From Mustelus asterias (taxonomy: Eukaryota), in the NCBI RefSeq assembly GCF_964213995.1, contig NW_027590987.1:1-64000 (forward strand): DNA of 64,000 nt, written 5' to 3'. The stretch's first letter is position 1, and each line of letters begins with the position of its first letter. Shown here piece after piece: positions 1,379-56,467 of the stretch. The translations under genes and the position numbers were made by a program. The notes under the pieces were generated by a model, which did no database searches, had not been told where the DNA came from, and worked only from the letters and a program-made list of their open reading frames with translations.

Positions 1379-2653
1379 ATGGAAGAAAAAAGCATCGATT
1401 GCAGTGGGGAGAATCTGTACGCGTGTTCTGTGTATGAATCATCTGACCCCACGAACCACAAGTGCCGTCACACTGAAGAGAAGCCGTTGAAATGTGGGGA
1501 CTGCGAGGAAGGATTCTATTCCCCATCTGAACTGGAAATTCACCAGCGAGTTCATGCTGGGGAGAGGCCGTTCACCTGCTCTGTGTGTGGGAAAGGATTC
1601 ACTCAGTCGTTCAACCTGCTGAGACACCGGCAAGTTCACACTGGAGAGAGACCATTCACCTGCTCCAAATGTGGGAAGGGATTCACTCAGTCCTCCAATC
1701 TGCTGGTACACCAGAGAGTTCACACCGGGGAGAGGCCATTCACCTGCTCCCAGTGTGGGAAGGGATTCATTCACACAAGCAACCTGCTATCACACCAGCG
1801 AGTTCACACTGACAAGAGACCTTTTAAATGTCCAGCATGTGGGAAGTGCTTTAAAAGTTCCCGGGAACTGACACGCCATCAGCAAGTTCACACGGAGGAA
1901 AGACCTTTTCACTGTGCAGAATGTGGAAAGGGCTATAAAAGTTCCTGGGAACTGACGTACCACCAACGTGTTCACACTGAGGAGAGACCGTTCAGGTGCT
2001 CTCACTGCGGGACTGGGTTCAGGCAATCATCTCAACTCACTGTACACCAGCGAATTCACACTGGGAAAAGGCCATTCACCTGCACGGAGTGTGGGAAGGG
2101 ATTTAGTCGGTCATCCCAACTCATGGTGCACCAGCGGGTTCACTCTGGAGAGAGACCTTTCAAGTGCCTCGACTGTGAGAATTACTATAAAAGTTCTGGA
2201 GAACTGAAATCCCATCAGCATGTTCACACTGACAAGAAACCGTTCAGATGCTCTCACTGTGCAATTGGATTCAGGCAATCATCCCATCTCACTGAACACC
2301 AGCGAATTCACACTGGGGAGAGACCGTTCACCTGCTCCAATTGTGGGAAGGGATTCACTCAGTCCTCCCAACTCATGGCTCACCAGCGGGTTCACACTGA
2401 GGAGAGACCTTTCAAATGCCCAGACTGTGGGAAGTGCTACAAACGATCTGGAGATCTGAGGTCCCACCAACGTGTTCACACTGACGAGAGGCCATTCATG
2501 TGCTCTCAATGTGGGACTGGGTTCAGTCGATCGTCGATACTAATTGAACACCAGCGAGTTCACACTGGGGAGAAACCATTCACCTGCTCCAAGTGTGGGA
2601 AGGGATTCACTCGGAAATCCAACCTGCTGACGCATCAGCGAATTCATAAGTGA
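1379..2653 (+). CDS. ZNF-A: tandem C2H2 zinc-finger protein, 14 fingers, no effector domain
   Basis: Open ORF from ATG 1379 to TGA 2651-2653 with 14 CxxC-x12-HxxxH units and TGERP-type linkers. Candidate splice acceptor TTTCACAG at ~1266. Confidence 0.9.
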
Positions 2654-3252
2654 AGGCAGGAGTTAGAGTTTGCTGTTAATCACACCCAGGACTGAACAAC
2701 ATTCATTAGGGTCCTATTCTGCTGGTGGTCATAAACTGCAGCTCGGTAATAGGTGTTAATGTTCTGGATAAAATTAAACTGAATCAGTTTTGTGTCAAAC
2801 AATATATGGCAAATGTTTTTAATATTAACACAAGTTAGTTGCTTTTGAAGTGAGCTTTCTCTGGACCAAGATTTACTCTGGCTACTTGTTTCCTGTTGTT
2901 TCCTTTTTTTTACACTGCTTGGATAGGTATGATCCCATTCAATAAGAACAATATGCAACGAGAGAGTTCGGGGAGTCCATTCAGCCCTCATCATTTGACT
3001 GTCAAGTTGACTTGGACGAAATGCATCATCTGTAAGGCTGTATTTATATCACATTCATAGCCCATCCACCAAGTCACAGCTCATACTGAGCCAGAGGATC
3101 TACCATTTTACAGCCATAGGGCTGTCACACCATGCCAAATATATGAACATTTCCATTAGTGGATGGAAATGATGGCAGTCTGGGGGCCCAATTGGAGACA
3201 CAAGCACAGAAATATGGGGAATTGACCATGTTAATGTGGGGATTTGTCACAA

Positions 3253-4030
3253 ACCTTCGTCTTCATCAATGACATGTTGAAGGCTCCAGAGGAGATGCCG
3301 TAGCTTCTCCGCTCCGGGGAAGTACTGGACGACAAAGGGTATTCTGTCCACCATGTCCCGTGTTTGTCTTCTGAGGAGGTCGGTGCGGTTTATCGCTGTG
3401 GCACGTCGGAACTGTCGATCGATGAGTTGAGCGCCATATCCTGTTCTTTATGAGGGCATCTTTCAGCGCCTGGAGGTGTCTGTTGCGATCCTCCTCATCC
3501 GAGCAGATCCTGTGTATACGGAGGGCTTGTCCATAGGGGGTGACTTCTTTAACGTGTTTAGGGTGGAAGCTGGAGAAGTGGAGCATCGTGAGGTTATCCA
3601 TGGGCTTGCGGTATAGTGAGGTGCTGAGGTGACCGTCCTTAATGGAGATGTGTGTGTCCAAGAATGCAACCGATTCCGGAGAGTAGTCCATGGTGAGTCT
3701 GATGGTGGGGTGGAACTTGTTGATGTCATCATATAGTTGTCTCAGTGATTGTTCACCATGAGTCCAAAGGAAGAAAATGTCATCAATGTATCTAGTGTAT
3801 AGCATCAGTTGAAGGTCCTGTGCGGTGAAGATGTCTTGTTTGAACCTGTGCATGAAGATGTTGGCATATTGAGGTGCAAATTTGGTCCCCATGGCTGTTC
3901 CGTGTGTCTGGATGAAGAACTGGTTGTTGAAGGTGAAGACATTGTGGTCCAGGATTAAGCGGATGAGTTGTAAAATTGCATCTGGAAACTGGCAGTTGTC
4001 GGTGCTGAGCACTGAAACGGCCTGAGTGGC
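3253..4030 (-). mobile_element. Penelope-like element, reverse transcriptase fragment
   Basis: ORF 3266-4111 has GTAMGTKFAPQYANIFM, YTRYIDDIFFLW and FLD..I..SLYRKP, typical PLE RT motifs. Its 3' part is closely similar to 44110-44425. Confidence 0.88.
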
Positions 4031-4039
4031 CTGCTCATA

Positions 4040-4330
4040 GTTCATTTGTCCATATATTCTTATGTCTCTTTTCCTGGAAATCTCTCTCTCTCTCTTGGGA
4101 ATGTGCATCACACAACTTTTCCATTCGCACTGATGATTGAAATCTTTTTGAACAGGGCATCAGTGTTCCTCTGACATTTGATCACTGATGATAGTCGTGT
4201 CCGAATGAATCAAGATGTTTCTGACTGAAAATCCTTCCATTCTAATCCCTTGTCAATAAAAACATCTATCAAAGCAATGAATGTAAGCACAGGATAGAAA
4301 TTTGAAACTGATATTCTGGTTGTCACGTAA
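4040..4330 (-). pseudogene. Remnant 5' part of a ZNF coding exon, truncated by the PLE
   Basis: Minus strand reads AATTTCTATCCTGTG...GACAAG|GGATTAGAATGGAAGGATTTTCAGTCAGAAAC, homologous to the cluster-wide splice acceptor and to the ZNF-A exon start (GGTATTAGAAGAGGAGGATTTTCAGTCGGGAAAC). Confidence 0.55.
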
Positions 4331-4344
4331 CATTCTCCTCCCTT

Positions 4345-5089: not shown

Positions 5090-5445
5090 TTGGAGACTCG
5101 GCTCCGGCCGAGTAATGGCGGCCGTGGCTCCCACAATCCCCCGCGCTGAGGAAATCGCTCTATTCGCCGGGTGGGACTGCGCATGATGAACCCAGAGAAG
5201 TTCTGCGCATGTGCGGAGGATAGCGTTTCCCATTGGCCAACAACTTCGAGCGATCCAGGGTCAAAGTGTCTCCCACTCACTTCCGCTGCACCACTGTCTT
5301 CATGAGGGGCATTGACCAATGGGAGGAATTGGAGGACCGGAAGGACACTGGTCCTCCAGCCAATCAGAGTGCGGGCTTTGTGACAATGCAGATTGGATTT
5401 CAGACGGACTGAAATCTCTTCCTGTCGTCAACATCTGTCAGTAAA
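5090..5445. promoter_or_regulatory. CpG-rich, probably bidirectional promoter of ZNF-B and the minus-strand remnant
   Basis: TAATGGCGG (YY1-like), TGCGCATG x2 (NRF1-like), CCAAT boxes, TGGAGGACC..GGTCCTCCA inverted repeat, local CpG enrichment. Confidence 0.65.
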
Positions 5446-6862
5446 ACTCTTTGTTTTCTTCTCTCCTTTTTCTTCTCATTCTGGGGTTAAATTGGGGACT
5501 TGCAGCAACTGAAGGGAAAGGAAGTGAATTCAGGGAGCTGCAGACTCTGGAAAGGTTGGCCCAGGTATCTCTCTCCCTCTTAAAGACATTGCCATCCTTT
5601 GCTTCCTCAACTTGTCACATTTATTTGTCTGGTTAAGAGGATGGTCTCTTTCCTAATGTTCACAATTTAAAGGGGTGATTTCCCGAGGAAATAGCTGAAA
5701 TTTAAGGGGCAGTAAATTAATATAGGACAGAGATGTGTGCAGTCTTGTAAGATGATACAAATTAGATATATTATGCATGGTCCAGTAATAAAGTTCATTT
5801 TTTATTATTTTTAGTTTTGTTAATACTGTAACTAAGTCGTTTATTTTCAGTAATCGGGTTATTGTATCACACAAGGAGTCCATTCAGCAACTCAAGTCCA
5901 TGCTAACTCTCTGTAGAGCAATCCAGTCAGTCCCATTCCCCCTTAAGTTCATAAGATATAGGAGCATAATTAGGCTATTTGGCCCATCGAGTCCACTCCG
6001 CCATTCAATCATGGCTGATATGCTCCTCATCCCGTCTGTATCCCTGCTCCCCTGCCAGTCTATTTTGACTGCCCATCTAATTTCATTTTGAAATATTGAA
6101 TGTATCAAAATGCACCACCCTCATAGCCAAACAATTGATATTCAAGAATGTTCACTGTTGAAATAATGTTCTATCTCATAGCCTTGCTGTACTTCTATTT
6201 ATTAAACTGGTCCCCTATGTTACATACATTTTACTTCACTAAGTATATTTAGGTATTTAGACTGGCAGCCTGCATGAAGATATCTCAGTGCTGGAGAAGA
6301 AGCAGTGAGTATGGATTTGTTGATCAGCATGAATCAACACCTTCAGGAGAATTGGAAGGGTGTATTATACATACAGCAGAGTGAGGAGACAGGGATAGGG
6401 TGTGGGATGGAGATGTACAGATCGAGAGGAACGAGAAAGGAAGAAATGTTCCACAGAAACTAGAATTGTCTATTCTGAATTTCTGTTTGATACTGACAGT
6501 GATGACTTTTGTAAACTCATTTTACAGGAAGTTATAAGGGGAAGATTTGCTGCCAGCAATCTCAAAACATGTTAAGGCTTAATAGAGTCACTCAAATTAT
6601 CAGAACTTGAATATCATCAGACTTTGAATCTAGAAGAAGAAATATTTATCTGTTTTTTCTGTCACATCAGTGTGACTGGAAAGGCACCAAGAAACACAGG
6701 CCTGAGTGAGAGTGTCCAGTACACTGACTGTCAAAAGACCAGTTACACAGACTGCAAAAATATCACATCATTTACAGCGGGGACAGACAGTGCACATGCT
6801 CTATGTGTGGATGAGGATTTAACTGATTGTTAAACCTGGAAAGACACAAGGACATCCACACC

Positions 6863-8077
6863 ATGGAGAAACCGGGGAAAGATGAGGATTGTGGTAAGGA
6901 ATTCCATATCCCGTCTGCACTGCAAACTCATCAACATATTCGCACTGGGGAGAGACTGTTCCCCTGCTCCAAGTGTGGGGAAGGAGACTGCTCCCCATCT
7001 GCCCTGAAGATTCATCAATGCAGCCACACTGGGGAGAGGCCCTTCATCTGCTCTGAGTGTGGGAAGGGTTTTCTCCAGGCAGCCGACCTGTGGAATCACC
7101 AAGCAGTTCACAGTAGGGAGAGGCTGTACACCTGCTCTGAGTGTGGGAAGGGATTCACTCAGTTATCCCACCTGCTGACACACCAGCAAGTTCACACTGG
7201 GGAAAAACCATTCAACTGCTCTGAGTGTGGGAAGCAATTCAATCATTCATCTGAACTTTTGAATCACCAACAAATCCACACCGGAGAGCGACCATTCACC
7301 TGCTCCGACTGTGGAAAGGGTTTCACTCAGTCATCTCACCTGCAGATACACCAGCGAGCCCACACTAAGGAGAGGCCTTTCAACTGCTCTGAGTGCGGGA
7401 AGTGTTTTATTCAATTATCACACCTAGTGACTCACCAGGGAGTCCACAGGGGGGAGAGGCCGTTCCCCTGCTCCGAGTGTGGGAAGCGTTTTATTCAGTT
7501 ATCACATCTAGTGACACACAAAGGAACACACACAAGGGAGAGGCCATTCAGCTGCCCCGAATGTGGGAAACGTTTTATCCAATCGTCACACCTAATGTCA
7601 CACCAGGGAGTTCACAGCAGGGAGAGGCCATTCGTCTGCTCCGAGTGTGGGAGGCGTTTTATTCAATCATCCCACCTAGTGTCACACCAGGAGGTTCACA
7701 CCAGGGAGAGGCCATTTACCTGTTCCGAGTGTGGCAGGGGATTCATTCAGTTATCTGACCTGCAGAATCACCAGCAAGTTCACACCGGGGAGAGGCCGTT
7801 CACCTGCTCTGAGTGTGGGAAGGGATTTACTCGTTCAGCTAACCTGCAGGCACACCGACGTGTTCACACCAGGGAGAGACCATTCACCTGCTCTGAGTGT
7901 GGGAAAGGATTCGCTCTTTCATCTTATCTGCAGAGTCACCAGCAAGTTCACACTGGAGAGAGGCCGTTTATCTGCTCTGAGTGTGGAAAGGGATTCATTC
8001 AGTCATCCCACCTGCAGACACACCAACGAGTTCACAAGGATTCACAAAGGGATTCACTCAGTCATCCCACCTGCTGA
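6863..8077 (+). CDS. ZNF-B: C2H2 protein, 13 intact fingers plus 1 degenerate, rearranged C-terminus
   Basis: ACCATGG start at 6863. First finger has lost a Cys (KDEDC). The ORF runs out of frame into a partial finger at ~8035-8100. Confidence 0.85.
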
Positions 8078-11801: not shown

Positions 11802-11924
11802 AGTTAGACCCTGGCTGAACAATCAGATTGGCAAGATTTATTTGATTCTATTCTGTAGATTAAGCTGCAGCTCAGTTTTTTGGGAAATTAACATCAGCAG
11901 AAACAAACTCCAACTATCACAATG

Positions 11925-14515
11925 GGAACATGTGAATTAGGAGCAGGAGAAGGCCACTCGGCCCCTCGAGCCTGCTCCACCATTCAATAGGGTCCCGGCT
12001 GATGTGATTGTAGCTTCAACTCCACTTTCCTTCTTACCCCTCACACCCTTTCACTCTCGTCAATCAAGAATCTATTAAATTCAGACTTCAGAATATTCAG
12101 TGAGCCAGCCTCCACCACTCTCTGTGGAAGAGAATTCCACACTGTAACAACCCTCTGAGAGAAAAGGTTTCTCCTCATCCCAGTCTTAAATGGGAGACCC
12201 CGTATTTTTAAACTGTGCCTCTAGTTCTCCTCTCTCTACAATCAACATCCACTCTGTCAAGTCCCCTCTGAATTTTATGTTTCAATCAGATCCTCTCTCA
12301 TTCTTCTAAACCCCTTTAGATACAGGCCGAACATGTCCAACATTTCCTTGTATGATAACACCCTCATCCCGTGAATCAGTCAACTAAACCTTCTCTGAAC
12401 TACTTCTCACACAAGTCCTCTCTTAAGTAAGGAGACCAAAACTGTACACCGTGCTCTAGATGTGGTCTCACCAATACCCTGAACAAATGCAGCAAAACAT
12501 CTCTGCAATAAACAACAATTCATTTACCTTTCTAATCATTTGCTGGATCCACACACTAACTTTTCCTGATTACGGTACCAGGACACCCAGATCCCTCTGT
12601 ACCTCAAAGTTCTGCAATCTCTCTCTGTTTAAATAATCAGCTGCTTTTCCATCCTTCCTGCCAAATGGACAAGTTCACATTATCCAAAAATCTTGTTCCA
12701 GTTGCCAACTTTTTGCCCACTCACTGACCCTATCTATATCGCTTTGCAGGCTTGTTATGGTCATTCACATCTCACTTTCCTACCTACCTTTGTGTTATCA
12801 ACAAATTTTGATCCTGTCATCCACATCATGAAAATAGTTTGTCAATAGTTGAGGGCCCAGCACTGGTCCCTGTGGCACTCCACAGGCTACACTTTGCCAT
12901 CCCAAAAATGACTTGTTTCTCCCTCAGCATGGTTTTGTGGCAGGTAGGTCGTGCCTTACTAACCTTATTGAGTTTTTTGAGAAAGTGACCAAGGAGGTGG
13001 ATGGGGGCAAGGCAGTGGACGTGGTATATATGGATTTTAGTAAGGCGTTTGATAAGGTTCACCATGGTAGGCTTCTGCAGAAAATGCAGATGTATGGGAT
13101 TGGGGGTGATCTAGGAAATTGGATCAGGAATTGGCTAGCGGATAGGAAACAGAGGGTGGTGGTTGATAGTAAATATTCATCATGGAGTGCGGTTACAAGT
13201 GGTGTACCTCAGGGATCTGTTTTGGGGCCACTGCTGTTTGTAATATTTATTAATGATCTGGATGAGGGTATAGTTGGGTGGATTAGCAAATTTGCTGATG
13301 ACACCAAAGTCGGTGGTGTGGTAGACAGTGAGGAAGGGTGTCGTAGTTTGCAGGAAGACTTAGACAGGTTGCAAAGTTGGGCCGAGAGGTGGCGGATGGA
13401 GTTTAATGCGGAGAAGTGTGAGGTAATTCACTTTGGTAGGAATAACAGATGTGTTGAGTATAGGGCTAACGGGAGGACTTTGAATAGTGTGGAGGAGCAG
13501 AGGGATCTAGGTGTATGTGTGCATAGATCCCTGAAAGTTGGGAATCAAGTAGATAAGGTTGTTAAGAAGGCATATGGTGTCTTGACGTTTATTGGTAGGG
13601 GGATTGAATTTAGGAGTCGTAGCGTTATGTTGCAACTGTACACAACTCTGGTGCGGCCGCACTTGGAGTACTGTGTGCAGTTCTGGTCCCCACATTACAG
13701 GAAGGATGTGGAGGCTTTGGAGAGGGTGCAGAGGAGGTTTACCAGGATGTTGCCTGGTATGGAGGGGAGATCCTATGAGGAGAGGCTGAGGGATTTGGGA
13801 TTGTTTTCGCTGGAAAGGCGGCGGCTAAGAGGGGATCTTATTGAAACATATAAGATGATTAGAGGTTTAGATAGGGTGGATAGTGATAGCCTTTTTCCTC
13901 TGATGGAGAAATCCAGCACGAGGGGGCATGGCTTTAAATTGAGGGGGGGTAGTTATAGAACCGATGTCAGGGGTAGGTTCTTTACCCAGAGGGTGGTGAG
14001 GGATTGGAATGCCCTGCCAGCATCAGTAGTAAATGCGCCTAGTTTGGGGGCGTTTAAGAGATCCGTAGATAGGTTCATGGACGAAAAGAAATTGGTTTAG
14101 GTTGGAGGGTCACAGTTTTTTTTTTTAACTGGTCGGTGCAACATCGTGGGCCGAAGGGCCTGTTCTGCGCTGTAATGTTCTATGTTCTATGTTCTATGTT
14201 CTATGTTCCTCTCTGTTTCCGATTAGCTCATCAATCCTCTATCCATGCTAATATAAAGAATCAACATGGATAAAATGCTAATATGCCTTATGCTACGAAT
14301 TCTTATTAAGTGTGGTAAACATTGATGTGGCACCTTGTCAAATGCCTTCTGGAAAACTAAATACACCACATCCACAGGTTCCACTTTATCCACATTGCTT
14401 GTTACTTCCTCAAAGAATCCAACACATCAATTAACAGGATGTCCCTTGCACAAAACCATGTTGACTCTGCCTGATTGCACGGAGATTATCTGTGTCCCAT
14501 CCCAGTCTCCTTAAT
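11925..14515 (-). mobile_element. Old CR1 LINE (11925-12924 plus 14209-14515), interrupted by a young CR1
   Basis: Minus strand has degenerate PQGPVLGP, FVDNTK and F.KAFDKVPH motifs and a CR1-type 3' UTR at ~11935-12000. Confidence 0.7.
12925..14208 (+). mobile_element. Young 5'-truncated CR1 LINE with intact RT C-terminal ORF
   Basis: Uninterrupted ORF: [33 protein letters not shown]. Ends in (TTCTATG)n tail. Confidence 0.95.
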
Positions 14516-14532: not shown

Positions 14533-15917
14533 TCAGTCCTGCATGGGATTAGCAGCAACAGCAGAATCCAACCCCTGCAGTGACTTGTGAACTTGCTGGT
14601 GTCTCAGCAGATTGGCTGACCGAGCAAATCTCTTCCCACATACGGAGCAGGTGAACGATCTCTCTCCCGTGTGAACCTGCTGGTGTCTCAGCAGGTGGGA
14701 TGACTGAGTGAACCTTTTCCCACACATGGAGCAGGTGAATGATCTCTCCCCAGTGTGAATTTGCTGGTGTCTCAGCAGGTCCTTCGTGCTTTTAAAGCTC
14801 TTCTCACAGTCAGAACATTTAAAAGGTCTCTGATCAGTGTGGACCAGTTGATGTGCAATGAGCTGGGGTGGCTGAGTGAATCGTTTCCCACATGTGGAGC
14901 AAGTGAAGGGTTTCTCCCCAGTGTGAATTCGCTCGTGTATCAGAAGCTGGGCTGAATCAGTGAATCCCTTCCCACACACACAGTGCAAATGAATGGCTTC
15001 TCCCCGGTGTGAGCTCGCTGGTGTCTCAGACAGTGGGATGAATGGGTGAATCCCATCCCACACACCGAGCAGGTGAACGGTTTCTCCCCGGTGTGAACTC
15101 GCTGGTGTCTCAGACGGTGGGATGAATGGGTGAATCCCATCCCACACACCGAGCAGGTGAACGGTTTCTCCCCAGTGTGAACTCGCTGGTGTCTCAGACA
15201 GTGGGATGAATGGGTGAATCCCATCCCACACACCGAGCAGGTGAACGGTTTCTCCCCAGTGTGAACTCGCTGGTGTGTCACCAAATCCTGTTTACTTTTA
15301 AAGCTCTTCTCACAGTCAGAACACTGAAATGGTCTCTTATCAGAGTGAACTCGCTGGTGTGTTTGCAGCTGGGATAAACGTCCGAATCTCCTCTCACATA
15401 CGGAGCAGGTGAATGGCTTCTCCCCAGTGTGAGTGCGCTGATGGACTTGTAAATCATTTTTACTTTTAAATCTCTTCTCACAGTCAGAACACTGAAATGG
15501 TCTCCGATCAGTGTGAACAAGTTGGTGTGTCAGAAGGTGGGATGACTGAGTGAATCCCTTCCCACACACTGAGCAGGTGAACGGTCTCACCGCCATGTGA
15601 GTGCGCTGGTGTCTCAGGAGGTCCTTTGTGCTTTTAAAGCTTTTCTCACAATCAGAACACTGAAACAGTCTCTGATCGGAGTGAACCTCCCGGTGAATCA
15701 GGAGGCTTGATAAAGCATGACATCCCCTCCCACATTCGAGGCAGGTGAACGGCCTCTCACCAGTGTGAACACGCCGGTGTGTATAGAGGCTGGATGAGTA
15801 AGCAAATCCTTTCCCACACTCAGAGCAGGTGAACGGCCTCTCTCCAGTGTGAATGCGACGATGAATATCCAATTCGGACGGGTAATTGAATCCCCTCCCA
15901 CAGTCCACACATTTCAA
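14533..15917 (-). pseudogene. ZNF-C: ~16-finger C2H2 gene with lost start codon and a +2 frameshift
   Basis: Paralogous ATG-GAG-AAA is ACA-GAG-AAA, with an in-frame TAA upstream and no ATG between. An extra TG in TGTGTGTGTGGG at ~14975 shifts the frame between ORFs 14940-15917 and 14533-15231. Confidence 0.7.
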
Positions 15918-16516
15918 TGGTTTCTCTGTGCTGCGGGTGTCCTCATGTGACTCCAGGTTGGATGATGAGTTGAAGCCTCGTTTACACAGAATATGTGTCG
16001 GGTCACTACTCAGTTAGAATGATGTGATTATTTTTCAGACTTGTTAAACCACTTTCCACATTCAGCACATTGGAAACTCTCAGGTGTGTTTGTGTGTCTA
16101 GGTGCTTTTTCAGTCACACTGATGTTTGAAATCTTTGCCCGCAGACAGAATGAACATTTCTCCTTCTGTAGACAAAGGCTGATGATATTCAGTTTCTGAT
16201 GAATCAAATCACTGAAACAGATCTTGATGTGAAGTTTGGTTTGAGTTTCACATCTGTAAATCCTGCTTCATAATACCCTGCAAAAACAGTTTACAAATAC
16301 CATCACTGTCAGTGCAGGATAGAAATTCTGAACAGACAATTCATAGTTTCTCTGGAACATATTTTCCTCTCTTGTTCCCCCAAATCTATAAATCCCCGTC
16401 CCACACACTCTACCTCCTCCCCTGGACTGAAATCCAAACCCATCTCAACATCTCCACCATTTCTTCCCTCCACTCCCAGTTTTCTCCCTCCCTCTCCTCT
16501 GTCTGGGTTCAGTTCT

Positions 16517-16801: not shown

Positions 16802-17149
16802 CTGGGTTCAGTTCTCCAGCTGCTGTCTGCAGACTGACAATAAAACCAATGGGTCTTATTGGGGGTGTTGGGGCCTCCAGCGGGTGTTTGTGAATCCTCC
16901 CCGCCCACCTCCCAGGGTTTCCTTCCTTCCCAGAGATCAGAGTCCTCATTGATTTGAGGCCAAAGTGTAACCTCTTATTTATTGTCCCCCTCCCCCATCC
17001 TCTGATGTGAACCATCCTCCAGTGGCTGAGCCAGGATGGGGCCGTTAACCTGGGCCTGTTCCCGGGAGGGAGGGAGGGAGAAGCCCCGCAGCTGCAAACC
17101 AGGGAGCTGACAATGATTCTGAAGGGTTTGCGGATCCACAAAGTGTTTC

Positions 17150-18140
17150 CAAATCCTCCCAGCCACCGCCTAACGCTGACTCCGCTTCTCCGGGACAAAC
17201 AAGCGCCAAGGACAGCAATGACACTGCGCATGCTCCACATCACAATGCCCGGGGACTGATTGACGGCAGCTCCGGACCAATAGGAAGAGGGGGCGGGACT
17301 GGCCGACCGAGCCGGAGCGGCTGGTCCTCCAACCAATCGGAGTGAACGAGGGGCGGGACTGGAGGACCGAGCGGGAGCGGCTGATCCTCCAACCAATCGG
17401 AGTGAATGAGAGGCGGGACCTGAAGCATGCGCAGTGCGGGTAATGGCGACGGGTAGACGGGCGGTTTTAATTTGGAGGCGAGATCAATACTAGGTAGGGG
17501 GCGGCGCGCGGGGAATGATAAATGTGGCGAGTGGGTGGAGAGACTTTGTAAACATGTTGTTCAAACCCAGACCCCGGAAATGAACTTCCCGGTCCCCCCT
17601 TTGTACCAAATGGAGCGGCAGCTTGTAGTGTTAGACCCGGGCTGACTGCCGCCATTGAGGCTGCATGTGGGAGGCCGGCAGGGATTGTGATCGGAGAGGG
17701 AAGCCCTGACGTCACAATGGAATGGGTGAGAGTGTGAGGTCACAATGGAATGGGTGAGGGTGTGACATCACAATGGAATGGGTGAGTGTGTGACGTCACA
17801 ATGGAATGTGATCGGAGAGCGAAATTTCACTCTGAAGCTCATTGGACAACTTCCGCATTGTGACGCTACGATAGAACCCTGCCTGAATCAGCCAATAGGA
17901 ATCACTGCGCTCCGCGGTGATGTCTCCGGGTTCCATGGTGCAGGCCCGGGCGTGCGGACCCGGGAGCCCTGCCCCCACCCATTGTTCCCCTCCCCCTACA
18001 CCACATCGAGCCAAGGTTTCCAGGCAACCGGCTGACGGCTCTGGCCAGAGCGAGAAGCCGCTCGGTGATCTCCCCCTCCCCCCGCCCGGGACTGCAAAAT
18101 GTGCGAGGGAGAGGGGAAGCTGTGCATATGCGGGGGAGAA
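17150..18140. promoter_or_regulatory. Bidirectional CpG-island promoter between ZNF-C(-) and ZNF-D(+)
   Basis: TGCGCATG / GCATGCGCA (NRF1), GGGGCGGGAC (Sp1), 3-4 CCAAT, CCGGAAAT and ACTTCC (ETS-like), TAATGGCG (YY1-like), TGACGTCA (CRE). Duplicated at 52900-53530. Confidence 0.75.
17707..17808. repeat. 28-bp minisatellite (~3.6 copies) carrying CRE-like octamers
   Basis: Unit TGA(CG/GG/CA)TCACAATGGAATGGGTGAGAGTG. Confidence 0.9.
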
Positions 18141-18594
18141 CCCACCCTCTGAATGAGAGAGGAAAGAATGTTCCATAGAAATTGTCTGTTCTGAATTTCT
18201 ATCCTGTACTGACACTGATGACTTTTGGAAACTCATTTTCCAGGATATTGAAAGAGGAATCACAGGCTGAAATCTCAAACGTCACGTCTAGATCTGACAG
18301 AGTCATATTCCTTGGGACCTCAATATCATCGGACTTTGAATCCAGAAGGAGAAATGATTGTCCAGTCTGTCGATTTGAAAAGATTTGAAATGTCAGTGTG
18401 AGTGAAAAAGCGTCAACACACTGCCACACTCGAGTGAGAGTGTTCCGATGCACTGACTAAAGAGCTTTAACCAGTTACACAGTCTGAATAAATATCACAC
18501 CATTCACAGCAGGTGGAGACTGTAATCTTGTTCTGTGTGTGGACGAAGTTTCAACTAATTGTCCACTCAAGAGTGAGGTAAGGACACCTGCACC

Positions 18595-20616: not shown

Positions 20617-20851
20617 TTCCAGAGGTTGGATTCTGCTGTTATTGTTCCTGCTCTCAATTACATCCAGGATTGCATTTTGTTCATTCTCACAGTTGGTCAA
20701 TGGGAAGGGTCAGAGGGTTTCTTTGTGCTGGACTGGCTGGTCTCAGCCTCCAGTGGGTTGATGCTCTTTGAGTCTTTTTGCAAATACCTGGTTTCAAATG
20801 TCACAAGGATCACAGAGTGACAGGGTGTTAGGAAGTTTAGAGATATTTAGT

Positions 20852-21923: not shown

Positions 21924-21929
21924 TGTTTG

Positions 21930-28408: not shown

Positions 28409-28410
28409 AC

Positions 28411-38549: not shown

Positions 38550-39149
38550 GGTGCAGGTGTCCTTACCTCTCTCTTGGGTGGACAATCAGTTGAAGTCTCG
38601 TCCACACTCACAACACGGGTACAGTCTCTCCCTGCTGTGAATGGTGTGATATTTATTCAGGCTGTGTAACTGGTTAAAGCTCTTTAGTTAGTGCACTGGA
38701 ACACTCTCACTCGAGTGTGGCAGTGTGTTGCTGCTTTTCCAGTCACACTGACATTTCAAATCTTTTCAAATCAACAGACTGGACAATCATTTCTCCTTCC
38801 AGATTCAAAGTCCGATGATATTCAGCTCCCAAGGAATATGACTCTGTCAGATCTAGACGTGACGTTTGAGATTTCGGCCTGTGATTCCTCTTTCAATATC
38901 CTGTAAAACAGGTTGACAAAAGTCATCAGTGTCAGTACAGGATAGAAATTCAGAACAGACAATTCTAGTTTCTATGGAACATTCTTTCCTATTTCAGTCC
39001 CAAAAAGCTGTAAATTTCCATCCCACACACTCTCCCTCCATTCTCACTCTGCTGTATCTAATATTCACCCTCCCAATTCTCCTGAAGGTGCTGATTGAGG
39101 CTGATTGACAGATCCATGCTCACTGCTTCCTGTCCTGGACACAGAGACC

Positions 39150-39560: not shown

Positions 39561-39705
39561 GAAATATATAACGTAGCTACAGTTCCATATTACAAGATAT
39601 TCAGATCCCAAGGAATATGGCTCTGTCTAGACGTGACGGTTGAGATTTTTGCCTTTGATTCCTCATTCAATATCCTATGAAATGAGTTTGCAAAAGTCAT
39701 CACAG

Positions 39706-40067
39706 TCATAGAATCATAGAAACCCTACAGTGCAGAAGGAGGCCATTCGGCCCATCGAGTCTGCACCGACCACAATCCCACCCAGGCCTTACCCGCTAAT
39801 CCCTTTTTTTTTTTACCCGCTAATTTACCCGCTAATCCCTCTAACCTACGCATCCCAGGACTCTAAGGGACAATTTTTAACCTGGCCAATCAACCTAACC
39901 CGCACATCTTTGGACTGTGGGAGGAAACCGGAGCACCCGGAGGAAACCCACGCAGACACGAGGAGAATGTGCAAACTCCACACAGACAGTGACCTGAGCC
40001 GGGAATCGAACCCAGGACCCTGGAGCTGTGAAGCAGCAGTGCTAACCACTGTGCTACCGTGCCGCCC
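39706..40067 (-). mobile_element. Young V-SINE, tail type A
   Basis: Nearly identical to 11461-11801. Inserted in a duplicated splice-acceptor block. Confidence 0.9.
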
Positions 40068-40589
40068 CTGTCAGTATAGGATAGAAATTCAGAGCAGCCA
40101 ATTCTAGTTTCTATGGAACATTCTTTCCTATTTCATTCCCAAAAAGTTGTAAATCTCCATCCATATCTATGGATTCTATTTAAAAACGAAAGTGGATGGG
40201 CATTTGAAGGAAATAAACTTTCAGGAGAATGGGGATATAGAGGGGGATTGGGACTGGAATGTTATACAGAGAGTCAGAATGGACTCGAGTTACCGAATGG
40301 ATTCCTTCTGTGCTGTAATGACTTTATGACTGGAAATGTATAACATCGCTATAGCATTATATTACAATGCAAGAACTAATAATAAAAGTATTTTATTACA
40401 GAAACATAAATAATATATCTAATCTGGGTACCATATAATAACACTAGACAGATCTCTGTCCTATATTAACATACTGTCCCCTTAAATGTCAGCCATCTCC
40501 TGGGGAAAGCTGCCCTTTAATGTGAACATGAGGAAAAAGACCATCCTTTTCGACAGACAAATAAATGTGTCAAGCTGAGGGAGCAAAGG

Positions 40590-41068: not shown

Positions 41069-41245
41069 ATATCAATGTCTTTAAGAGAGAGCGAGAGGGA
41101 GACCTGGGCCAACCTTTCCAGAGTCTGCAGCCTCCCTGGATTCACTTCCTTTCCCTTCAGTTGCTGCAAGTCCCCAATTTCCCCCAGAATGAGAAAAGAA
41201 ATGGAAAGGGGGAGAAAAGAAAGTGTGTTACTCACAGATGTTGGC

Positions 41246-42778
41246 CTCTTTTAGGTCAAAACAAATAAACAAACTCAGATTAAGTCAGGACAAAGTAAAA
41301 GGGGCAGCTCCCCAAAAGGAGGGAGAACAGTCCGAACAGAAATCAAAGTACAAAGGAAACTTAAAAACATCAAATTAAAATGTGATTATTAGGGTCGATA
41401 ACGCACCCCAACCCCTGCGGTGCCCAGCGGGCGCGGAAGGCGTCAACCGCGCCCGTGGACACCGCATGCTCCCTCTCCAGGGACACCTGGCCGCGAACGT
41501 AGCCGCGGTAGAGGGGAAGACAGTCAGGATGGACGGCCCCCTCGATCGCCCGCAGCCTGGACCGGTAAATGGCGCGTTTCGCCAGGCCCAGGAGCAGGTT
41601 CACGAGGAGGTCGCCATCCCGACCCCAACAAAAAGAAAGTGCAACCTAAGACACAAAACATAGACATGGTCCACGGACTTCACAAGGCCACAGAAGGGGC
41701 AAGCTTCATAGCCCGTGAACCAGTGAATCCTACGGTTGTGCGGAACTGCTGCATGCATCACCCTTCACCCCAGGTCCCCGATGTAATTGGGGCAATCCCT
41801 CCGTAGAGGGACCTCTACGGAAACAAGGCCCGCCAAGGTGTATCCGGGCGACAGGCAAGGAGGCGGTAGTGGAAGGTGTGCAGCAGCAGCCCACACAGGA
41901 AACGCCTCCGCGCGGTAGGAAAAGGCACGGAGGACATTTCCACGAGGCGGCTCAGGCTGTGGGGCACCTGACCCGAGGAGGAGGGTTGAAGTTTTGGGCC
42001 AATGTGGAATTCTGTCCGAACAGGGGAACGCTCGGGCGGGATCCCACCGCACGCCTGCGCCGCCTCGAGTTTGCGTGCAGTTTCGGGGCCGAGCACGACC
42101 GTCCTAAGGTCTAGGATGGCTTTGGCCGTGTGCCGGACGGTCGTCCCCACGCACTCAGCCAGCACGCGGGGGCCCATCCAGCCCGCTCCTCCGCCATCGA
42201 GCACGTCCCCGATTCTGGTCACCCCGGCGTCCACAGCCCTCCTCTCCGCCAGCCACCTGAAGTCATACGGCTGGAGGAGCGGATTCCTGAGCAGCGGCTC
42301 TCGCACGAGAGCTGCTACTCCTGACGGGGGAGAGCTGTGTCGCGAGGCGACCGTGTTCCAGACGGTGAGGTAAAAGATGGGCAACTCCTGCAGGGCGGTC
42401 GAAGCACGCCCCAGTTCGATATGCAGGAGCTGCACGTCATAATTGAGGCCGTGCCAGTGGCAGAAGAAATATGGCACACCATTGTGGAGGGGGCTCAACG
42501 TAAAGGTACCTTTAGCGGAAGGTCGCTATCTGAGTGCGGAGGCACACCAGACCTTGTCCGCCCTCCTCAAGCGGGAGATACAGAACCGCAGCAGGGACCC
42601 AGTGCAGTCGATTGCCCCAGAAGAACCGCAGGAGGGTTCTCTGGATATTGGCGACAAAGTAAGAAGTTTAACAACACCAGGATATTGGCGACAAAGCCAG
42701 GGGGAGGGGTCTAAGGGACCAGCCGGTACCACAGCATGGAGGCGAGCAGCTGGTTTATGACGAGAACCCGCGCCCGTG
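41246..42778 (-). mobile_element. Tx1/L1-clade LINE, ORF2 3' part plus T-rich 3' UTR
   Basis: GC-rich. Reads RVLVINQLLASMLWYRL..LEEGGQGLVC, then LP.FY..W..REPLLRNP, ending NLLLGLAKRAIYRSR..F..RW, as in the Tx1-type ORF2 C-terminus. Confidence 0.75.
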
Positions 42779-43439: not shown

Positions 43440-43880
43440 AACATTGCCCTCTACAAACATGGCGGCCGCACGTGCGCACTGCTGCATATTGCCCCCAATA
43501 AAGATGGCGAACGTTAACCCGGGACGAACACGAGGAGCTGCAGCCCTTCTCGGTACAAACTGGGTCCGAGAAGTTCTCTTCCGCGGTTTGCGGCTGACAC
43601 AACATGCTTACGCAGCGTTTCCACCCACCTGGACGATCCATTGCTCTCTCCGTACCTCCAATCACCTCTAACAGATTTCCGAGCCCAGAACAAAAGCCGT
43701 TTCCCATCGCCATTACTCACACTGCGCATGCTCCAGTCAAAGCTGGCCCCGCCCCTCTTTCGCTCCCATTGGTTGGAGGACCGACCGCTCCAAGTCGGTC
43801 CTCCAGCACTGTCCCCTCTTCCCATTGGTCCGCGCTGCCGTCAATCAGCCGGGCATTGTGACGGTGATTTGCTGCTTGTC
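43440..43880. promoter_or_regulatory. CpG promoter module, inverted homolog of 17240-17455, upstream of ZNF-F
   Basis: ACATGGCGGC and AAGATGGCG (YY1), ACTGCGCATGCTC (NRF1-like), GC box, ATTGG x2, 12-bp perfect inverted repeat. Confidence 0.65.
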
Positions 43881-46527: not shown

Positions 46528-47496
46528 ACTGCTGTTTGTAATATTTATTAATGATCTGGATGAGGGTATAGTTGGGTGGATTAGCAAATTTGCTGATGAC
46601 ACCAAAGTCGGTGGTGTGGTAGACAGTGAGGAAGGGTGTCGTAGTTTGCAGGAAGACTTAGACAGGTTGCAAAGTTGGGCCGAGAGGTGGCGGATGGAGT
46701 TTAATGCGGAGAAGTGTGAGGTAATTCACTTTGGTAGGAATAACAGATGTGTTGAGTATAGGGCTAACGGGAGGACTTTGAATAGTGTGGAGGAGCAGAG
46801 GGATCTAGGTGTATGTGTGCATAGATCCCTGAAAGTTGGGAATCAAGTAGATAAGGTTGTTAAGAAGGCATATGGTGTCTTGGCGTTTATTGGTAGGGGG
46901 ATTGAATTTAGGAGTCGTAGCGTTATGTTGCAACTGTACACAACTCTGGTGCGGCCGCACTTGGAGTACTGTGTGCAGTTCTGGTCCCCACATTACAGGA
47001 AGGATGTGGAGGCTTTGGAGAGGGTGCAGAGGAGGTTTACCAGGATGTTGCCTGGTATGGAGGGGAGATCCTATGAGGAGAGGCTGAGGGATTTGGGATT
47101 GTTTTCGCTGGAAAGGCGGCGGCTAAGAGGGGATCTTATTGAAACATATAAGATGATTAGAGGTTTAGATAGGGTGGATAGTGATAGCCTTTTTCCTCTG
47201 ATGGAGAAATCCAGCACGAGGGGGCATGGCTTTAAATTGAGGGGGGGTAGTTATAGAACCGATGTCAGGGGTAGGTTCTTTACCCAGAGGGTGGTGAGGG
47301 ATTGGAATGCCCTGCCAGCATCAGTAGTAAATGCGCCTAGTTTGGGGGCGTTTAAGAGATCCGTAGATAGGTTCATGGACGAAAAGAAATTGGTTTAGGT
47401 TGGAGGGTCACAGTTTTTTTTTTTAACTGGTCGGTGCAACATCGTGGGCCGAAGGGCCTGTTCTGCGCTGTAATGTTCTATGTTCTATGTTCTATG
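46528..47496 (+). mobile_element. Young 5'-truncated CR1, near-identical to 13230-14200
   Basis: Same peptide except LAFIG vs LTFIG. (TTCTATG)n tail. Confidence 0.95.
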
Positions 47497-50798: not shown

Positions 50799-51947
50799 TC
50801 AGTCCTGGATATGATTAACAGCATCGATAAGTGTAGAATCCAAACCTTGCAGTCGTTTGTGAACTCGCCGGTGTGTTAGCAGGTGGGATGACTGAACAAA
50901 TCCCTTTCCACAGACATTACAGGTGAACGGCCTCTCCCCAGTGTGAACTCGCTGGTGTTTCAGAAGATAAGAGAAATGAGAAAATCCCTTCCCACAGACA
51001 GAGCAGGTAAATGGCCTCTCCCCACTGTGAACTCTCTGATGTGTCAGCAGGTTGGATGACTGACTGAATCCCTTCCCACACATGGAGCAGGTGAACGGCC
51101 TCTCCCCAGTGTGAACTCGCTGGTGATTCAATAGGTTGGATGAACGAGTGAATCCCTTCCCACATACGGAGCAAGTGAATGGCCTCTCCTCACTGTGAAC
51201 CTGCTGCTGTGTCAGAAGGTTGTATGAACGGGTGAATCCCTTCCCACATTCAGAGCAGGTGAACGGTCGATCCCCTGTGTGGAGTTGCTGGTGTATCAGA
51301 AGGTTGGATGAATTAATGAATCCCTTCCCACAGTCTGAGCAGGTGAAGGGCCTCTCCCTAGTGTGAATTCTCTGGTGGTTCAATAGGGCAGATGGATGGC
51401 TGAATCCCTTCCCACACACACAGCAGGTGAATGGCCTCTCCCCAGTGTGAGTATATTGGTGCGTCAGCAGATCTTTTTTATTTTTAAAGCTCTTCTCACA
51501 GTGGGAACAATTAAAAAGTTTGTTATCAGAGTGAACAAGTTGATGTGTCTGCAAGTGGGATGACTGAATGAATCCTTTCCCACACACACAGCAGGTGAAC
51601 GGTCTCTCCCCAGTGTGAATACGTTGGTGCGTCAGCAGATCTTTTTTGCATTTAAAACTCTTCCCACAGTCAGAACATGGAGACAGTCTCTCATCAGTGT
51701 GAACAAGTTGGTGTGTCACAATGTGGGATGAGCGAGTGAATCCCTTCCCACACACAGGGCAGGTGAACGGCCTCTCCCCAGTGTGAACCCGTTGGTGAGT
51801 CAGAAGGTTGTATGAATGGGTGAATCCCTTCCCACAAACAGAGCAGGTGAACGGTCTCTCCCCAGTGTGACTGCGCTGATGAACTTCCAGTTGTGATGGG
51901 AAACTGATCCCTTTCCCACAATCCACACATTTCCACTGTTTCTCCAT
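50799..51947 (-). CDS. ZNF-G: 382-aa protein, 13 C2H2 fingers (one H>Q degenerate) with translated C-terminal tail
   Basis: ATG at 51947 (MEKQWKC), uninterrupted, ends [20 protein letters not shown]. Confidence 0.9.
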
Positions 51948-52899
51948 GGTGCTGGTGCCCTTGTGTTTCTCCAGGTTGGATGATCAGTTCAAGCCTCATC
52001 CACACACACAACATACACGTAGTTTCACCCTGCTGTGAACTGTGATTTTTTTTCAGGCTGTGTAACTGGTTAAAGCTCTTTCCACAGTCGGTTCACTGGA
52101 ACACTCTCACTCGGGTGTGTGTTTGTCCTGCTGCTTTTCTGGTCACACTGATGTTTAATTTCTTTGCCCACAGGCAGAACAGACAAATATTGCTCCTTCC
52201 ATATTCAAAGACCGATCATATTCAGCTCCGAAGGAACTGAATGACTTTGTCAGATGTGATGTTCGGTTTGAGTTTTCTGTCTGCCATTCCTTCACTTTGA
52301 ATATCCTGTAAAAACAGTTTAGAAAAGTCATCACTGTCAGAACAGGATAGAAACTCTGAACAATTCTAGTCTTTCTGGAACATTTTTTCCTTTCTTGTTC
52401 CCCCAAATCTGTAAATCCCCGTCCCACACACTCTCCCTCCTCCCTGCGCTGAAATCCAAACCCATCTCACCATTTCTTTCCTCCACTCCCAGTTTTCTCC
52501 CTCCCTCTCCTCTGTCTGGGTTCAGTTCTCCAGCTCCTGTCTGCAGACTGACAATAAAACCAATGGGTCTTATTGGGGGTGTTGGGGCCTCCAGCGGGTG
52601 TTTGTGAATCCTCCCCGCCCACCTCCCAGGGTTTCCTTCCTTCCCAGAGATCAGAGTCCTCATTGATTTGAGGCCAAAGTGTAACCTCTTATTTATTGTC
52701 CCCCTCCCCCATCCTCTGATGTGAACCATCCTCCAGTGGCTGAGCCAGGATGGGGCCGTTAACCTGGGCCTGTTCCCGGGAGGGAGGGAGGGAGGGAGAA
52801 GCCCCGCAGCTGCAAACCAGGGAGCTGACAATGATTCTGAAGGGTTTGCGGATCCACAAAGTGTTTCCAAATCCTCCCAGCCACCGCCTAACGCTGACT

Positions 52900-53530
52900 C
52901 CGCTTCTCCGGGACAAACAAGCGCCAAGGACAGCAATGACACTGCGCATGCTCCACATCACAATGCCCGGGCACTGATTGACGGCAGCTCCGGACCAATA
53001 GGAAGAGGGGGCCGGACTGGAGGACCGAGCGGGAGCGGCTGGTCCTCCAGCCAATCGGAGTGAATGAGAGGCGGGGCCTGTAGCATGCGCAGTGCGGGTA
53101 ATGACGACGGATGGACGGTTTTAACTCGGTAGCGAGATCAATACGAGGTAGAGGGCGGCGTGCGAGGAATGATAAATGTGGCGGGTGGGTGGAGAGGCTT
53201 TGTAAACATGTTGTTCAACCCCAAACCCCGGAAATGAACTTCCCGGTTCCCCCCCTTTGTACCCAATGGAGCGGCAGCTTGTAGTGTTAGACCCGGGCTG
53301 ACTGCCGCCATTGAGGCTGCATGTGGGAGGCCGGCAGGGATTGTGATCGGAGAGTGAAGCCCTGACGTCACAATGGAATGGGTGAGAGTGTGAGGTCACA
53401 ATGGAATGGGTGGGAGTGTGAGGTCACAATGGAATGGGTGAGAGTGTGATGTCACAATGGAATGGGTGAGAGTGTGACGTCACAATGGAATGGGTGAGAG
53501 TGTGATGTCACAATGGAATGGGTGAGGGTT
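52900..53530. promoter_or_regulatory. Bidirectional CpG promoter between ZNF-G(-) and ZNF-H(+), duplicate of 17170-17810
   Basis: Near-identical NRF1, CCAAT, GC-box, ETS and CRE arrangement. The remainder of the module resumes at 54620-54695. Confidence 0.75.
53363..53528. repeat. 28-bp CRE-like minisatellite, ~6 copies
   Basis: Unit TGA(C/G/T)GTCACAATGGAATGGGTGAGAGTG. Confidence 0.92.
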
Positions 53531-53582
53531 CCAGATGAGCTGACACTGGGCTGGAGTCGGGCGATGGCACTGACATGTGACC

Positions 53583-53885: not shown

Positions 53886-54012
53886 ATTACTGTTAATTAA
53901 TTAATTACTTTGAATGAAGGTGGTCTTGATGATGATGTGGACGTGGTTGGAAGCTCATATTGGGATGAACTATTTCACCCTGGTTGTGAACAGCCTGTTT
54001 CAGCCTCAGACA

Positions 54013-54380
54013 GTAAGTAATCTCACAACACCAGGTTAAAATCCAACAGGTTAATTTGCTGGCATAAGCCACAGGATTTTGGAGCGCTGCTCTTCATCAG
54101 GTGAGTGGGAGTTCTATTCACAAACAGGGCACAGAGACACAAACTCAATTTACAAAATAATGGTTGGAATGTGAGTCTTTACAGGTAATCAAGTCTTAAA
54201 GGTACAGACAATGTGAGTGGAGAGAGGGTGAAGCACAGGTTAAAGAGATGTGTATTGTCTCCAGCCAGGACAGTTAGTGAGATTTTGCAAGCCCAGGCAA
54301 TTTGTGGGGGTTACAGACAGTGTGAGTTACAGATAGTGTGACATGAACCCAAGATCCCGGTTGAGGCCGTCCTCATGTGT
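54013..54380 (-). mobile_element. PLE 3' end (ORF terminus plus pseudo-LTR) with decayed hammerhead at ~54069-54104
   Basis: Minus strand encodes HEDGLNRDLGFMSH, then pLTR. Hammerhead core reads CTGATGA..CAAAA (conserved G lost). Confidence 0.82.
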
Positions 54381-55288
54381 GATTGACAGATCCATGCTCA
54401 CTGCTTCTTGCCCTGGATGCAGAGAGCTGAAAATTTCCATGCAGGCTGCCAGACAAATAAATGTCTACATTACTGGAGTAAAAATGTGTGGAATATACAG
54501 ACCGAATTCACTTCATTCCCTTCAGTTGCTGCAAGTCCCCAATTTCCCCAGAATGAGAAAAGAAATGGAAAGGGGGAAACATTGATTTCCTCCCAGATGT
54601 TGTCCAGAAGAGGAAGTTTCAATCTGAAGCTCATTGGACAACTTCCGCATTGTGACGTCACAATGGAGCCTGCCTGAATCAGCGAATAGGAATCTCTCTT
54701 CCTACATCAAGAGCTGATGTTTCTTGTCTCGATGACCCTTTGTCAAAGCTCTGAAACATCAGTTCTTTTCTCTCCATCCAGATGCTGCCAGACCTGCTGA
54801 GAATGGGGAGAGAGTGTGTGGGATGGAGATTTACAGCTTTTGGGGAATGAGAGAGGAAAGAATGTTCCATAGAAATTGTCTGTTCTGAATTTCTATGCTG
54901 TACTGACACTGATGACTTTTGTAAACTCGTTTTACAGGATATTGAAAGAGGAATCACAGGCCGAAATCTCGAACGTCATGTCTAGACGTGACAGAGTCAT
55001 ATTCCTTGGGACCTCAATATCATCGGACTTTGAATCCAGAAGGAGAAATGATTGTCCAGTCTGTCGATTTGAAAAGATTTGAAATGTCAGTGTGAGTGAA
55101 AAAGCATCAACACACTGCCACACTTGAATGAGAGTGTTCCAATGCACTGACTAAAGAGCTTTAACCAGTTACACAGTCTGAATAAATATCACACCATTCA
55201 CAGCGGGGAGAGACTGTAATCTTGTTCTGAGTGTGGGCGAAGTTTCAACTAATTGTCCAGTCAAGAGAGAGGTAAGGACACCTGCACC

Positions 55289-56467
55289 ATGGATAAACCA
55301 TGGAAATGTGGGGACTGTGGGAAGGGATACAGAGCCCCATCTAAGCTGGAAGCTCATCGACGTAGCCACACTGGGGAGAGACCATTCACCTGCTCTCAAT
55401 GTGGGAAGGGATTCACTCGATTATCCCTCCTGCAGAGACACCAGCGAGTTCACACTGGAGAGAGGCCATTTTCCTGCTCTCAATGTGAGAAGGGATTCAG
55501 TCAGTTATCCGACCTGCAGAGACACCAACGAGTTCACACTGGGGAGAGGCCGTTCACCTGCTCTCAGTGTGGGAAGGGATTCACTCAATTATCCACCCTG
55601 CGGACACATGAACGAGTTCACACTGGGGAGAGGCCATTCACCTGCTCTCAGTGTGGGAAAGGATTCATTCTGTTATCCAGCCTGCGGATACACCAGCGAG
55701 TTCACACTGGGGAGAAACCATTCACCTGCTCTCAGTGTGGGAAGGGATTCATTCAGTTATCCAGCTTGCAGAAACACCAGCAAGTTCACACAGGAGAGAG
55801 GCCGTTCACCTGCCCTCAGTGTGGGAAGGGATTCATTCTGTTATCCCTCCTGCAGAGACACCAACGAGTTCACACTGGGGAGAGGCCATTCAACTGTTCT
55901 CAGTGTGGGAAGGGATTCACGAACTCATCCATCCTGCGGACACACGAACGAGTTCACACTGGGGAGAGACCGTTCACCTGCTCTCAGTGTGGGAAGAGAT
56001 TCACTCAGTCAGCCGACCTGCAGAGACACCAGCTACGTCACACAAGGGAGAGGTCGTTCACCTGCTCTCAGTGTGGGAAGGGATTCATTCTGTTATCCAG
56101 CCTGCGAATACACCAGCGAGTTCACACTGGGGAGAAACCATTCATCTGCTCTCAGTGTGGGAAGGGATTCACTAACTCATCTGATCTGCGGACACACCAG
56201 CGAGTTCACACAGGGGAGAGGCCGTTCACCTGCTCTCAGTGTGGGAAGGGATTCACTCAGTCATCCCACCTGCAGAGACACCAGCGAGTTCACACTGGGG
56301 AGAGACCATTCAACTGTTCTCAGTGTGGGAAGGGATTCACTCAGTCATCCAACTTGCAGACACACCAGCGAGTTCACACTGGGGAGAGGCCATTCACCTG
56401 CTCTCAGTGTGGGAAGGGATTCAGAGTTTCATCCCACCTGCTGAGACACCAGCGAGTTCACGAGTGA
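55289..56467 (+). CDS. ZNF-H: 392-aa protein with 14 C2H2 fingers
   Basis: ACCATGG start at 55289, uninterrupted. 5' and 3' flanks nearly identical to ZNF-D. Confidence 0.9.

Follow-up and report, generated by a model that had tools for sequence, protein, structure and literature searches.

How can zinc-finger proteins act on a genome when their genes seem to leave no room for an effector domain? This question is raised by a stretch of 64,000 nucleotides of Mustelus asterias (assembly GCF_964213995.1, contig NW_027590987.1, positions 1 to 64,000; hereafter the window), in which a preliminary description had seen eight related arrays of C2H2 zinc fingers (named A to H, 5–24 fingers each) and proposed a finger-only, fast-evolving candidate analogue of the KRAB zinc-finger (KRAB-ZNF) genes that silence transposons. 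The eight arrays are indeed present, six of them with intact reading frames. Taken together, our results are best explained by an old elasmobranch family of finger-only genes spreading by cassette copying, an explanation to which we give a probability of roughly 0.45. A silencing role of this family is plausible but unproven, and we infer that it resembles a transposon-reading zinc-finger (ZNF) family in its mode of action.

Reading frames, upstream stops and start codons

The arrays are composed of tandem C2H2 fingers with TGE(K/R)P linkers, all of an array being contained in one terminal exon. A six-frame motif scan of the window finds 107 C2H2 matches, versus 0–2 in each of 10 block shuffles. 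Seven genes share a common splice acceptor, located 112–358 nt 5′ of the ATG site, and the interval between the two contains in-frame stops in every case (1 in A, 5 in B, 9 in C, 11 in D, 7 in F, 6 in G and 9 in H). In the intact genes B, D, F, G and H, the last of them is only 18–36 nt 5′ of the ATG. As 5–11 in-frame stops precede their ATG, just as had been described, no in-frame effector exon is possible at the common acceptor of these five genes. At the sequence level, it is shown that translation can start in the terminal exon only.

The proteins encoded by the intact open reading frames (ORFs) are indeed little more than fingers. The N-terminus preceding the first finger is 6 aa long in D, F, G and H, 34 in B and 38 in A, and the C-terminal tail following the last finger is 1–19 aa long. 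The ATG had been placed directly at finger 1; this is true of D, F, G and H, where six codons precede the first Cys, but not of B, where it precedes a degenerate finger and lies 34 codons 5′ of the first canonical one. Neither PxVxL nor PxDLS is found in the six intact ORFs, and none of six candidate joins between a promoter-side exon and the acceptor puts an upstream ATG in frame with any finger. The absence of KRAB, SCAN, BTB and SET also stands, none of them being detected by Pfam in 333 sense-strand ORFs located 5′ of the arrays, which were selected for their strand and position among the 893 ORFs of at least 36 aa outside the arrays. The intact genes are thus, with high probability, finger-only.

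How such genes could have lost their upstream coding part is suggested by their leader. The leader of B, C, D, F, G and H consists of about 105 nt followed by three decayed C2H2 fingers. In the five intact genes among them, the ATG, in an ACCATGG context, is 3′ of the last dead finger, in register with the Gly of a TGEKP linker. Gene A starts at an earlier Met, just past the first 105 nt, and so do several shark relatives. This earlier Met would be the older start, and a new start arising inside a linker could have let the front fingers decay. The 5′ untranslated region (UTR) had been described as a common module, which it is, but not a plain one, since it is partly dead zinc-finger coding sequence. 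Even without transposon binding, the locus would offer a clear case of start codons born inside finger linkers.

The translation of the first 105 nt is an acidic stretch, but these nucleotides display no codon-position bias (30/26/30, p = 0.93; the coding control is itself weak, 17/19/30, p = 0.11), and only 3 of the 16 gaps in the whole leader are multiples of three. We therefore regard the leader as untranslated rather than as a lost effector. Conservation among sharks is just as good in the neighbouring intron as in the leader. The view that its acidic part is a decayed effector or a coding linker is thus not supported. Another view, that the stop shared by the genes 3′ of the first dead finger is the mark of a peptide conserved upstream, was rejected, since this position reads Trp in some relatives and D, F and H have a broken frame.

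A coding exon encoding a short effector, FiNZ-like or other, might alternatively be joined through a cryptic acceptor just 5′ of the ATG. Past their last in-frame stop, B, D, F, G and H each have one to six AG dinucleotides, not all of which can be told apart from the main acceptor by a crude pyrimidine measure. In addition, FiNZ, with its 28 aa, is under the 36-aa cut-off of a scan that covered 333 of 893 ORFs and included no FiNZ model. This hidden exon is nevertheless highly improbable: D has a single AG past its last stop, with a poor tract, the upstream acceptor is kept in seven genes and is the site where database models join varied exons, and the linker-derived Met is the start of several shark models (10 of 31 first-finger matches follow Met-Glu). 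A consensus-like splice donor is also observed 17 nt 5′ of the ATG in D (18578, +), F (38566, −) and H (55272, +); if used, it would splice out the start codon, giving non-coding or shortened isoforms.

Along the window, gene A (terminal exon 1267–2653, +; acceptor 1267) has an ORF of 424 aa and 14 fingers at 1379–2653, its longer N-terminus including one degenerate finger. Gene B (6528–8077, +; acceptor 6528) carries the leader with dead fingers and an ORF of 404 aa at 6863–8077, with 13 canonical fingers in addition to the degenerate first one. Pseudogene C (14536–16277, −; acceptor 16277) is devoid of ATG at the usual site and frameshifted near 14950, so that its array (14536–16013, −) reads as 11 fingers, a split finger and 4 more past the frameshift. 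Gene D (18244–20616, +; acceptor 18244; ORF 18595–20616, 673 aa) has 24 fingers. Pseudogene E (28400–29032, +) retains about 5 fingers (at about 28400–28810), an in-frame stop and the 3′ module, its 5′ end being replaced by a repeat of about 1 kb (27369–28400) that cuts the first finger. The last three are gene F (37539–38900, −; acceptor 38900; ORF 38549–37539, 336 aa, 12 fingers), gene G (50799–52305, −; acceptor 52305; three dead leader fingers; ORF 51947–50799, 382 aa, 12 canonical fingers and one without a His) and gene H (54938–56467, +; acceptor 54938; ORF 55289–56467, 392 aa, 14 fingers). Higher-order repeats are visible in two arrays, a three-finger unit of 252 bp in A (1886–2614) and a two-finger unit of 168 bp in C (14669–15853). 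No tRNA gene is found in the window by ARAGORN.

Contact residues and the conserved first finger

D, F and H form one young subfamily with homogenised arrays. The fingers within each of these genes are 85–87% identical at the DNA level, as compared to 65–74% in A, B, C and G, with no colinearity of finger order from one gene to the next. Between D and H, identity drops from 95% in the leader and 93% in the 3′ flank to 89% over the first 252 coding bases. When internal fingers are considered, first and last ones being left out, the contact codons of this subfamily have an omega (dN/dS) of 2.8–4.1, above the neutral rate (likelihood-ratio p = 0.002–0.013; 44 unique fingers). By parsimony, contact replacements number 54, as against 34 silent changes (p = 1e-5, or 0.005 once contact changes of the CpG type are dropped), and the six fold residues have undergone 15 silent changes and no replacement. 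In contact codons, third positions are nearly invariant while first and second ones vary. The share of diversity found at positions −1, 3 and 6 is 0.35–0.41 in D, F and H versus 0.19–0.22 in A, B, C and G.

One possibility, which we tentatively favour, is that the targets of the D/F/H subfamily are repeats or transposons. The proteins would bind DNA sequence-specifically, and the D/F/H members would keep pace with targets that change rapidly, retroelements or other repeats being the likeliest; the pattern of contact-residue change hints at such a conflict. The finger-only human protein ZNF146, which binds LINE-1, is a precedent for transposon recognition by fingers alone (PMC8896011).

Arrays under conflict or selection could also bind targets other than transposons, such as satellites, PRDM9-like recombination sites or host promoters, including those of family members. 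The homogenised arrays and contact diversity of D, F and H are reminiscent of PRDM9, and the elephant shark PRDM9 itself has a listed value of 0.314 (PMC5519329), for which the positions counted may differ. Yet SET, KRAB and SSXRD are missing from the upstream ORFs scanned, and the number of ZNFs tracks that of retroelements across animals, as stated in PMC10547256. We consider these targets unlikely.

How could a protein devoid of effector domain act once bound? More tentatively still, it might do so by site occupancy or by recruiting a cofactor through its fingers, the best candidate being the first one. This finger is characterized by a Trp two positions ahead of the first Cys and a Pro at helix position +1, which occur together in 23 and separately in 11 of 257 fingers, a set partly found with the first finger as query. 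A Glu is present at +5 in 21 of the 23 fingers with both Trp and Pro, and the net charge of the first-finger helix is −1.1, versus +0.6 in the others. The first-finger type is found in 16 of the 20 finger-bearing proteins retrieved by the leader alone and in none of 17 non-chondrichthyan ZNFs. Among the window genes, its pN/pS is 0.23–0.59 in 14 of 15 pairs. A search of the PDB with this finger gives generic C2H2 matches only. This acidic, family-specific finger is thus a candidate cofactor- or protein-binding surface; active repression by a finger-bound cofactor is speculative and, in our opinion, rather unlikely.

Several points weigh against our explanation. The first finger need not be an effector, because fingers at the edge escape array shuffling, and its type is missing from 4 of the 20 leader-bearing relatives with fingers and degenerate in B. 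The fast evolution attributed to the whole family applies to D, F and H but not to A, B and G, which show no positive selection (contact omega 0.4–0.7; 33 fingers). Even in D, F and H, the non-contact omega is 0.55–0.81 and not clearly below 1 under one model, and the contact omega may be inflated, because a single tree was used for units that probably recombine by gene conversion. The leaders contain 2–5 upstream ATGs, one of which overlaps the start of G out of frame. Finally, loss of ZNF146 did not activate LINE-1 in HEK293 cells, as reported in PMC8896011.

A rival explanation is mostly neutral turnover, in which unequal crossover generates copies of the cassette that are for the most part weakly expressed or dying, and in which the contact signal reflects the shuffling of old finger variants by gene conversion. 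Two of the eight arrays are dead and two remnants exist, the 85–87% similar D/F/H fingers are arranged in non-colinear order, leaders are crowded with upstream ATGs, and frameshifts or chimeric structures are common among shark database models. Neutral turnover does not, however, easily explain why six ORFs of 336–673 codons have stayed intact beside leaders filled with frameshifts, nor why fold residues show 0 replacements for 15 silent changes and contact codons vary at their first and second positions with third positions nearly fixed. It is conceivable, although somewhat unlikely.

The duplicated cassette and its range in sharks and skates

Our explanation implies that the whole cassette would be copied, comprising a two-way CpG promoter, one or several short non-coding exons and the terminal exon with its leader, finger ORF and 3′ module. 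The promoter, intron and leader modules that had been described as common to the genes are so, and the 3′ module is in part: B, D, E, F and H are 84–92% identical there, C and G only about 74%, and A has no match. Birth-and-death, also part of that description, is borne out by six intact arrays, two dead ones (C and E), two remnants and one duplicated head-to-head pair. The first remnant, at 4216–4336 (−), is confirmed; it contains an intron end, the acceptor and the leader, and adjoins a Penelope-type reverse transcriptase (RT) fragment. The second one (39596–40162, −), upstream of F, is a broken copy of the intron end and acceptor, split by a repeat resembling a short interspersed element (SINE).

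The head-to-head genes C and D are separated by a promoter block (16802–18064) with a CpG island, in which CCAAT and GC-box repeats (60-bp unit) and a 28-bp repeat with TGACGTCA are found, these element names being assigned here and in the other blocks by resemblance to consensus motifs. Donors of candidate first exons follow 17050 (−) and 18064 or 18023 (+). The block between G and H (52516–53529; candidate donor after 52764, −) is 93–98% identical to it, and a third, diverged copy is detected by sequence match upstream of F (43504–43861, −). B has a CpG-rich, promoter-like region with a candidate non-coding first exon (5100–5564, +; candidate donor after 5564), and a B-type module provides a candidate non-coding exon for F (41073–41243, −; donor after 41104), with no ATG in the 142 bases tested. 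Upstream of H (54504–54697), pieces of the B-type exon, on the reverse strand, adjoin pieces of the D-type promoter; this suggests a rearranged promoter region for H, whose expression is less assured than that of D. At 16950–17250 and 52660–52960, shark models read the promoter-side module both ways (P0002 and P0008 versus P0029, judged by eye on their translations), as would fit a two-way promoter for head-to-head pairs.

The possibility that these promoters come from histone genes was rejected, as neither histone similarity nor a promoter octamer or stem-loop is found in the window. A sawshark model (P0001) fuses the family leader to a degraded histone H2B, which suggests that histone genes and ZNF modules are side by side in some sharks.

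Judged from database proteins, the family is elasmobranch-wide, old and restricted to this lineage, with members in sharks and skates. A leader profile search returns 36 representatives, of which two were set aside because they match through their fingers alone; of the 34 leader-bearing relatives, 21 are named, all of them from sharks. No common upstream domain emerges among the 34 when the best five families per protein are considered. Their upstream parts vary: some are intron read-through, others promoter-side exons of either orientation, others again transposon pieces. Several models switch frame within the leader. Searches with the first finger give 18 and 29 proteins, among which are 27 distinct named relatives in sharks or skates, from the genera Heptranchias, Pristiophorus, Heterodontus, Chiloscyllium, Cetorhinus, Scyliorhinus, Mustelus, Amblyraja and Rhinoraja. 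KRAB, SCAN, BTB or SET is listed in none of these 27, while KRAB is listed in 5 of 8 tetrapod matches. Five Scyliorhinus torazame models splice an exon homologous to 5470–5564 and 41104–41200 onto the leader exon, in support of the exon layout proposed above. In Heterodontus, 13 of 20 proteins are encoded on one sequence of 59.5 Mb. Shark RefSeq models called "zinc finger protein 239/271/850-like", which are automatic names, belong to the same family, since they share the leader, the linker-derived Met and the first finger. No published account of the family was found in a literature search from which subscription papers were largely absent.

Two skate models (P0077 and P0084) have in common an in-frame N-terminal peptide with PxVxL, ahead of a leader-like segment. 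The peptide, whose motif is of the HP1-binding type, is the family's sole sign of a coding effector. It raises the possibility of a split system, in which some members would carry a short N-terminal effector and finger-only descendants would compete with them or partner in trans; the acceptor phase of A and G, still in frame with the fingers, is compatible with it. However, 68 N-terminal segments contain 4 occurrences of PxVxL for 1.5 expected, which is not above chance, and the two skate cases probably represent one event. The skate N-terminus has no match at 0.9 or above in an Atlas search, the six intact ORFs of the window have no such motif and the leader has no coding signature. A split system is therefore very unlikely.

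The finger-only genes are embedded in repeats, which, ZNF modules apart, make up 38% or more of the window in a comparison with itself. The labels CR1, SINE and PLE given to them are putative, scans showing only RT and endonuclease domains. The copies had been called very young. This fits best a CR1-type pair (13230–14198 and 46528–47496) with a single difference over 969 bases and distinct flanks; both copies are 5′-truncated and end in a short ATGTTCT repeat, and their family, judging from this identity, is active now or was very recently. Similarity is 96.7% in the closest SINE pair, and falls to only 93.7% for two Penelope-type pieces compared over 316 bases. That such a neighbourhood hints at transposon control cannot be maintained: transposons fill about half of the non-ZNF sequence and also break ZNF genes, so that their proximity is no evidence.

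Other repeats were observed in passing. Between D and E (20840–27370), CR1-type RT fragments of both orientations, six or more in number, form a dense nest. The repeat of about 1 kb that truncates E has copies at 34844–35427 and 60563–61674, about 89% alike, and is a putative solo long terminal repeat (LTR), since one of its ends is TG and AATAAA lies close to the opposite end. Between LTR-like copies, a 127-codon ORF (33659–34039, −) of coiled-coil-like composition has no Pfam match and is possibly a retroelement gag. A GC- and CpG-rich stretch (41400–42530, −), with a 236-codon ORF and no Pfam match, presumably resembles the 3′ end of an L1/Tx1-type element.

Comparison with known zinc-finger systems

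The genomes of cartilaginous fishes are rich in repeats and contain up to 3,586 multi-finger ORFs but no KRAB-ZNFs. KRAB is indeed reported among the families lost or absent in these fishes (PMC8455134). Wells et al. (2023; PMC10547256) counted 475–3,586 ORFs with at least five fingers in eight chondrichthyan assemblies and describe the correlation between transposons and ZNFs as independent of accessory domains; the words "shark" and "cartilaginous" do not occur in the main text of their paper. The idea examined here is therefore less new than the preliminary description stated, shark ZNF counts and this correlation being already published.

Like the KRAB-ZNF genes of lobe-finned fish and tetrapods, the shark genes are clustered tandem C2H2 genes with one terminal exon for the fingers, undergo birth-and-death, show positive selection at contact residues (here in D, F and H) and have matches concentrated on one chromosome. 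Unlike KRAB-ZNFs, which bind transposons and recruit TRIM28/SETDB1, they have no KRAB that could be found, either here or in relatives, and their upstream exons look non-coding. The FiNZ-ZNF genes of cyprinid fish (PMC10547256) likewise form a large, lineage-restricted family with a two-part layout and contact-site selection in some clades, and FiNZ knockdown derepresses transposons (Wells et al., 2023). FiNZ, an acidic domain of 28 aa, is, however, encoded by a conserved coding exon, whereas in-frame stops block such an exon at the common shark acceptor; this comparison is one of gene layout. In ray-finned fish, KRAB-like and FiNZ proteins have been associated with TRIM33, according to PMC11603059 and PMC10380595.

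With ZNF146/OZF, the family shares C2H2 fingers without any other recognisable domain (PMC8896011), but ZNF146 is a single conserved mammalian gene and not an expanding family; the likeness is one of architecture. With PRDM9, the D/F/H genes share homogenised arrays, contact-residue diversity and a distinct first finger. The shark family is nevertheless multi-copy and devoid of SET, KRAB and SSXRD, and the D/F/H contact share (0.35–0.41) is lower than most of the complete PRDM9 values compared (0.46–1.0; PMC5519329). The family is thus a member of neither the KRAB-ZNF nor the PRDM9 group.

Could it represent a KRAB-less system of repeat surveillance in sharks and skates, with hundreds to thousands of finger-only proteins, a cofactor module in the acidic first finger, a fast-evolving reader and two-way promoters shared by head-to-head genes? 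Such a complete system is decidedly unlikely. The locus nevertheless offers a defined finger-only family, a positively selected subfamily and a candidate effector, the first finger. If both transposon binding and finger-mediated repression were true, the family would represent a third vertebrate solution, beside KRAB and FiNZ.

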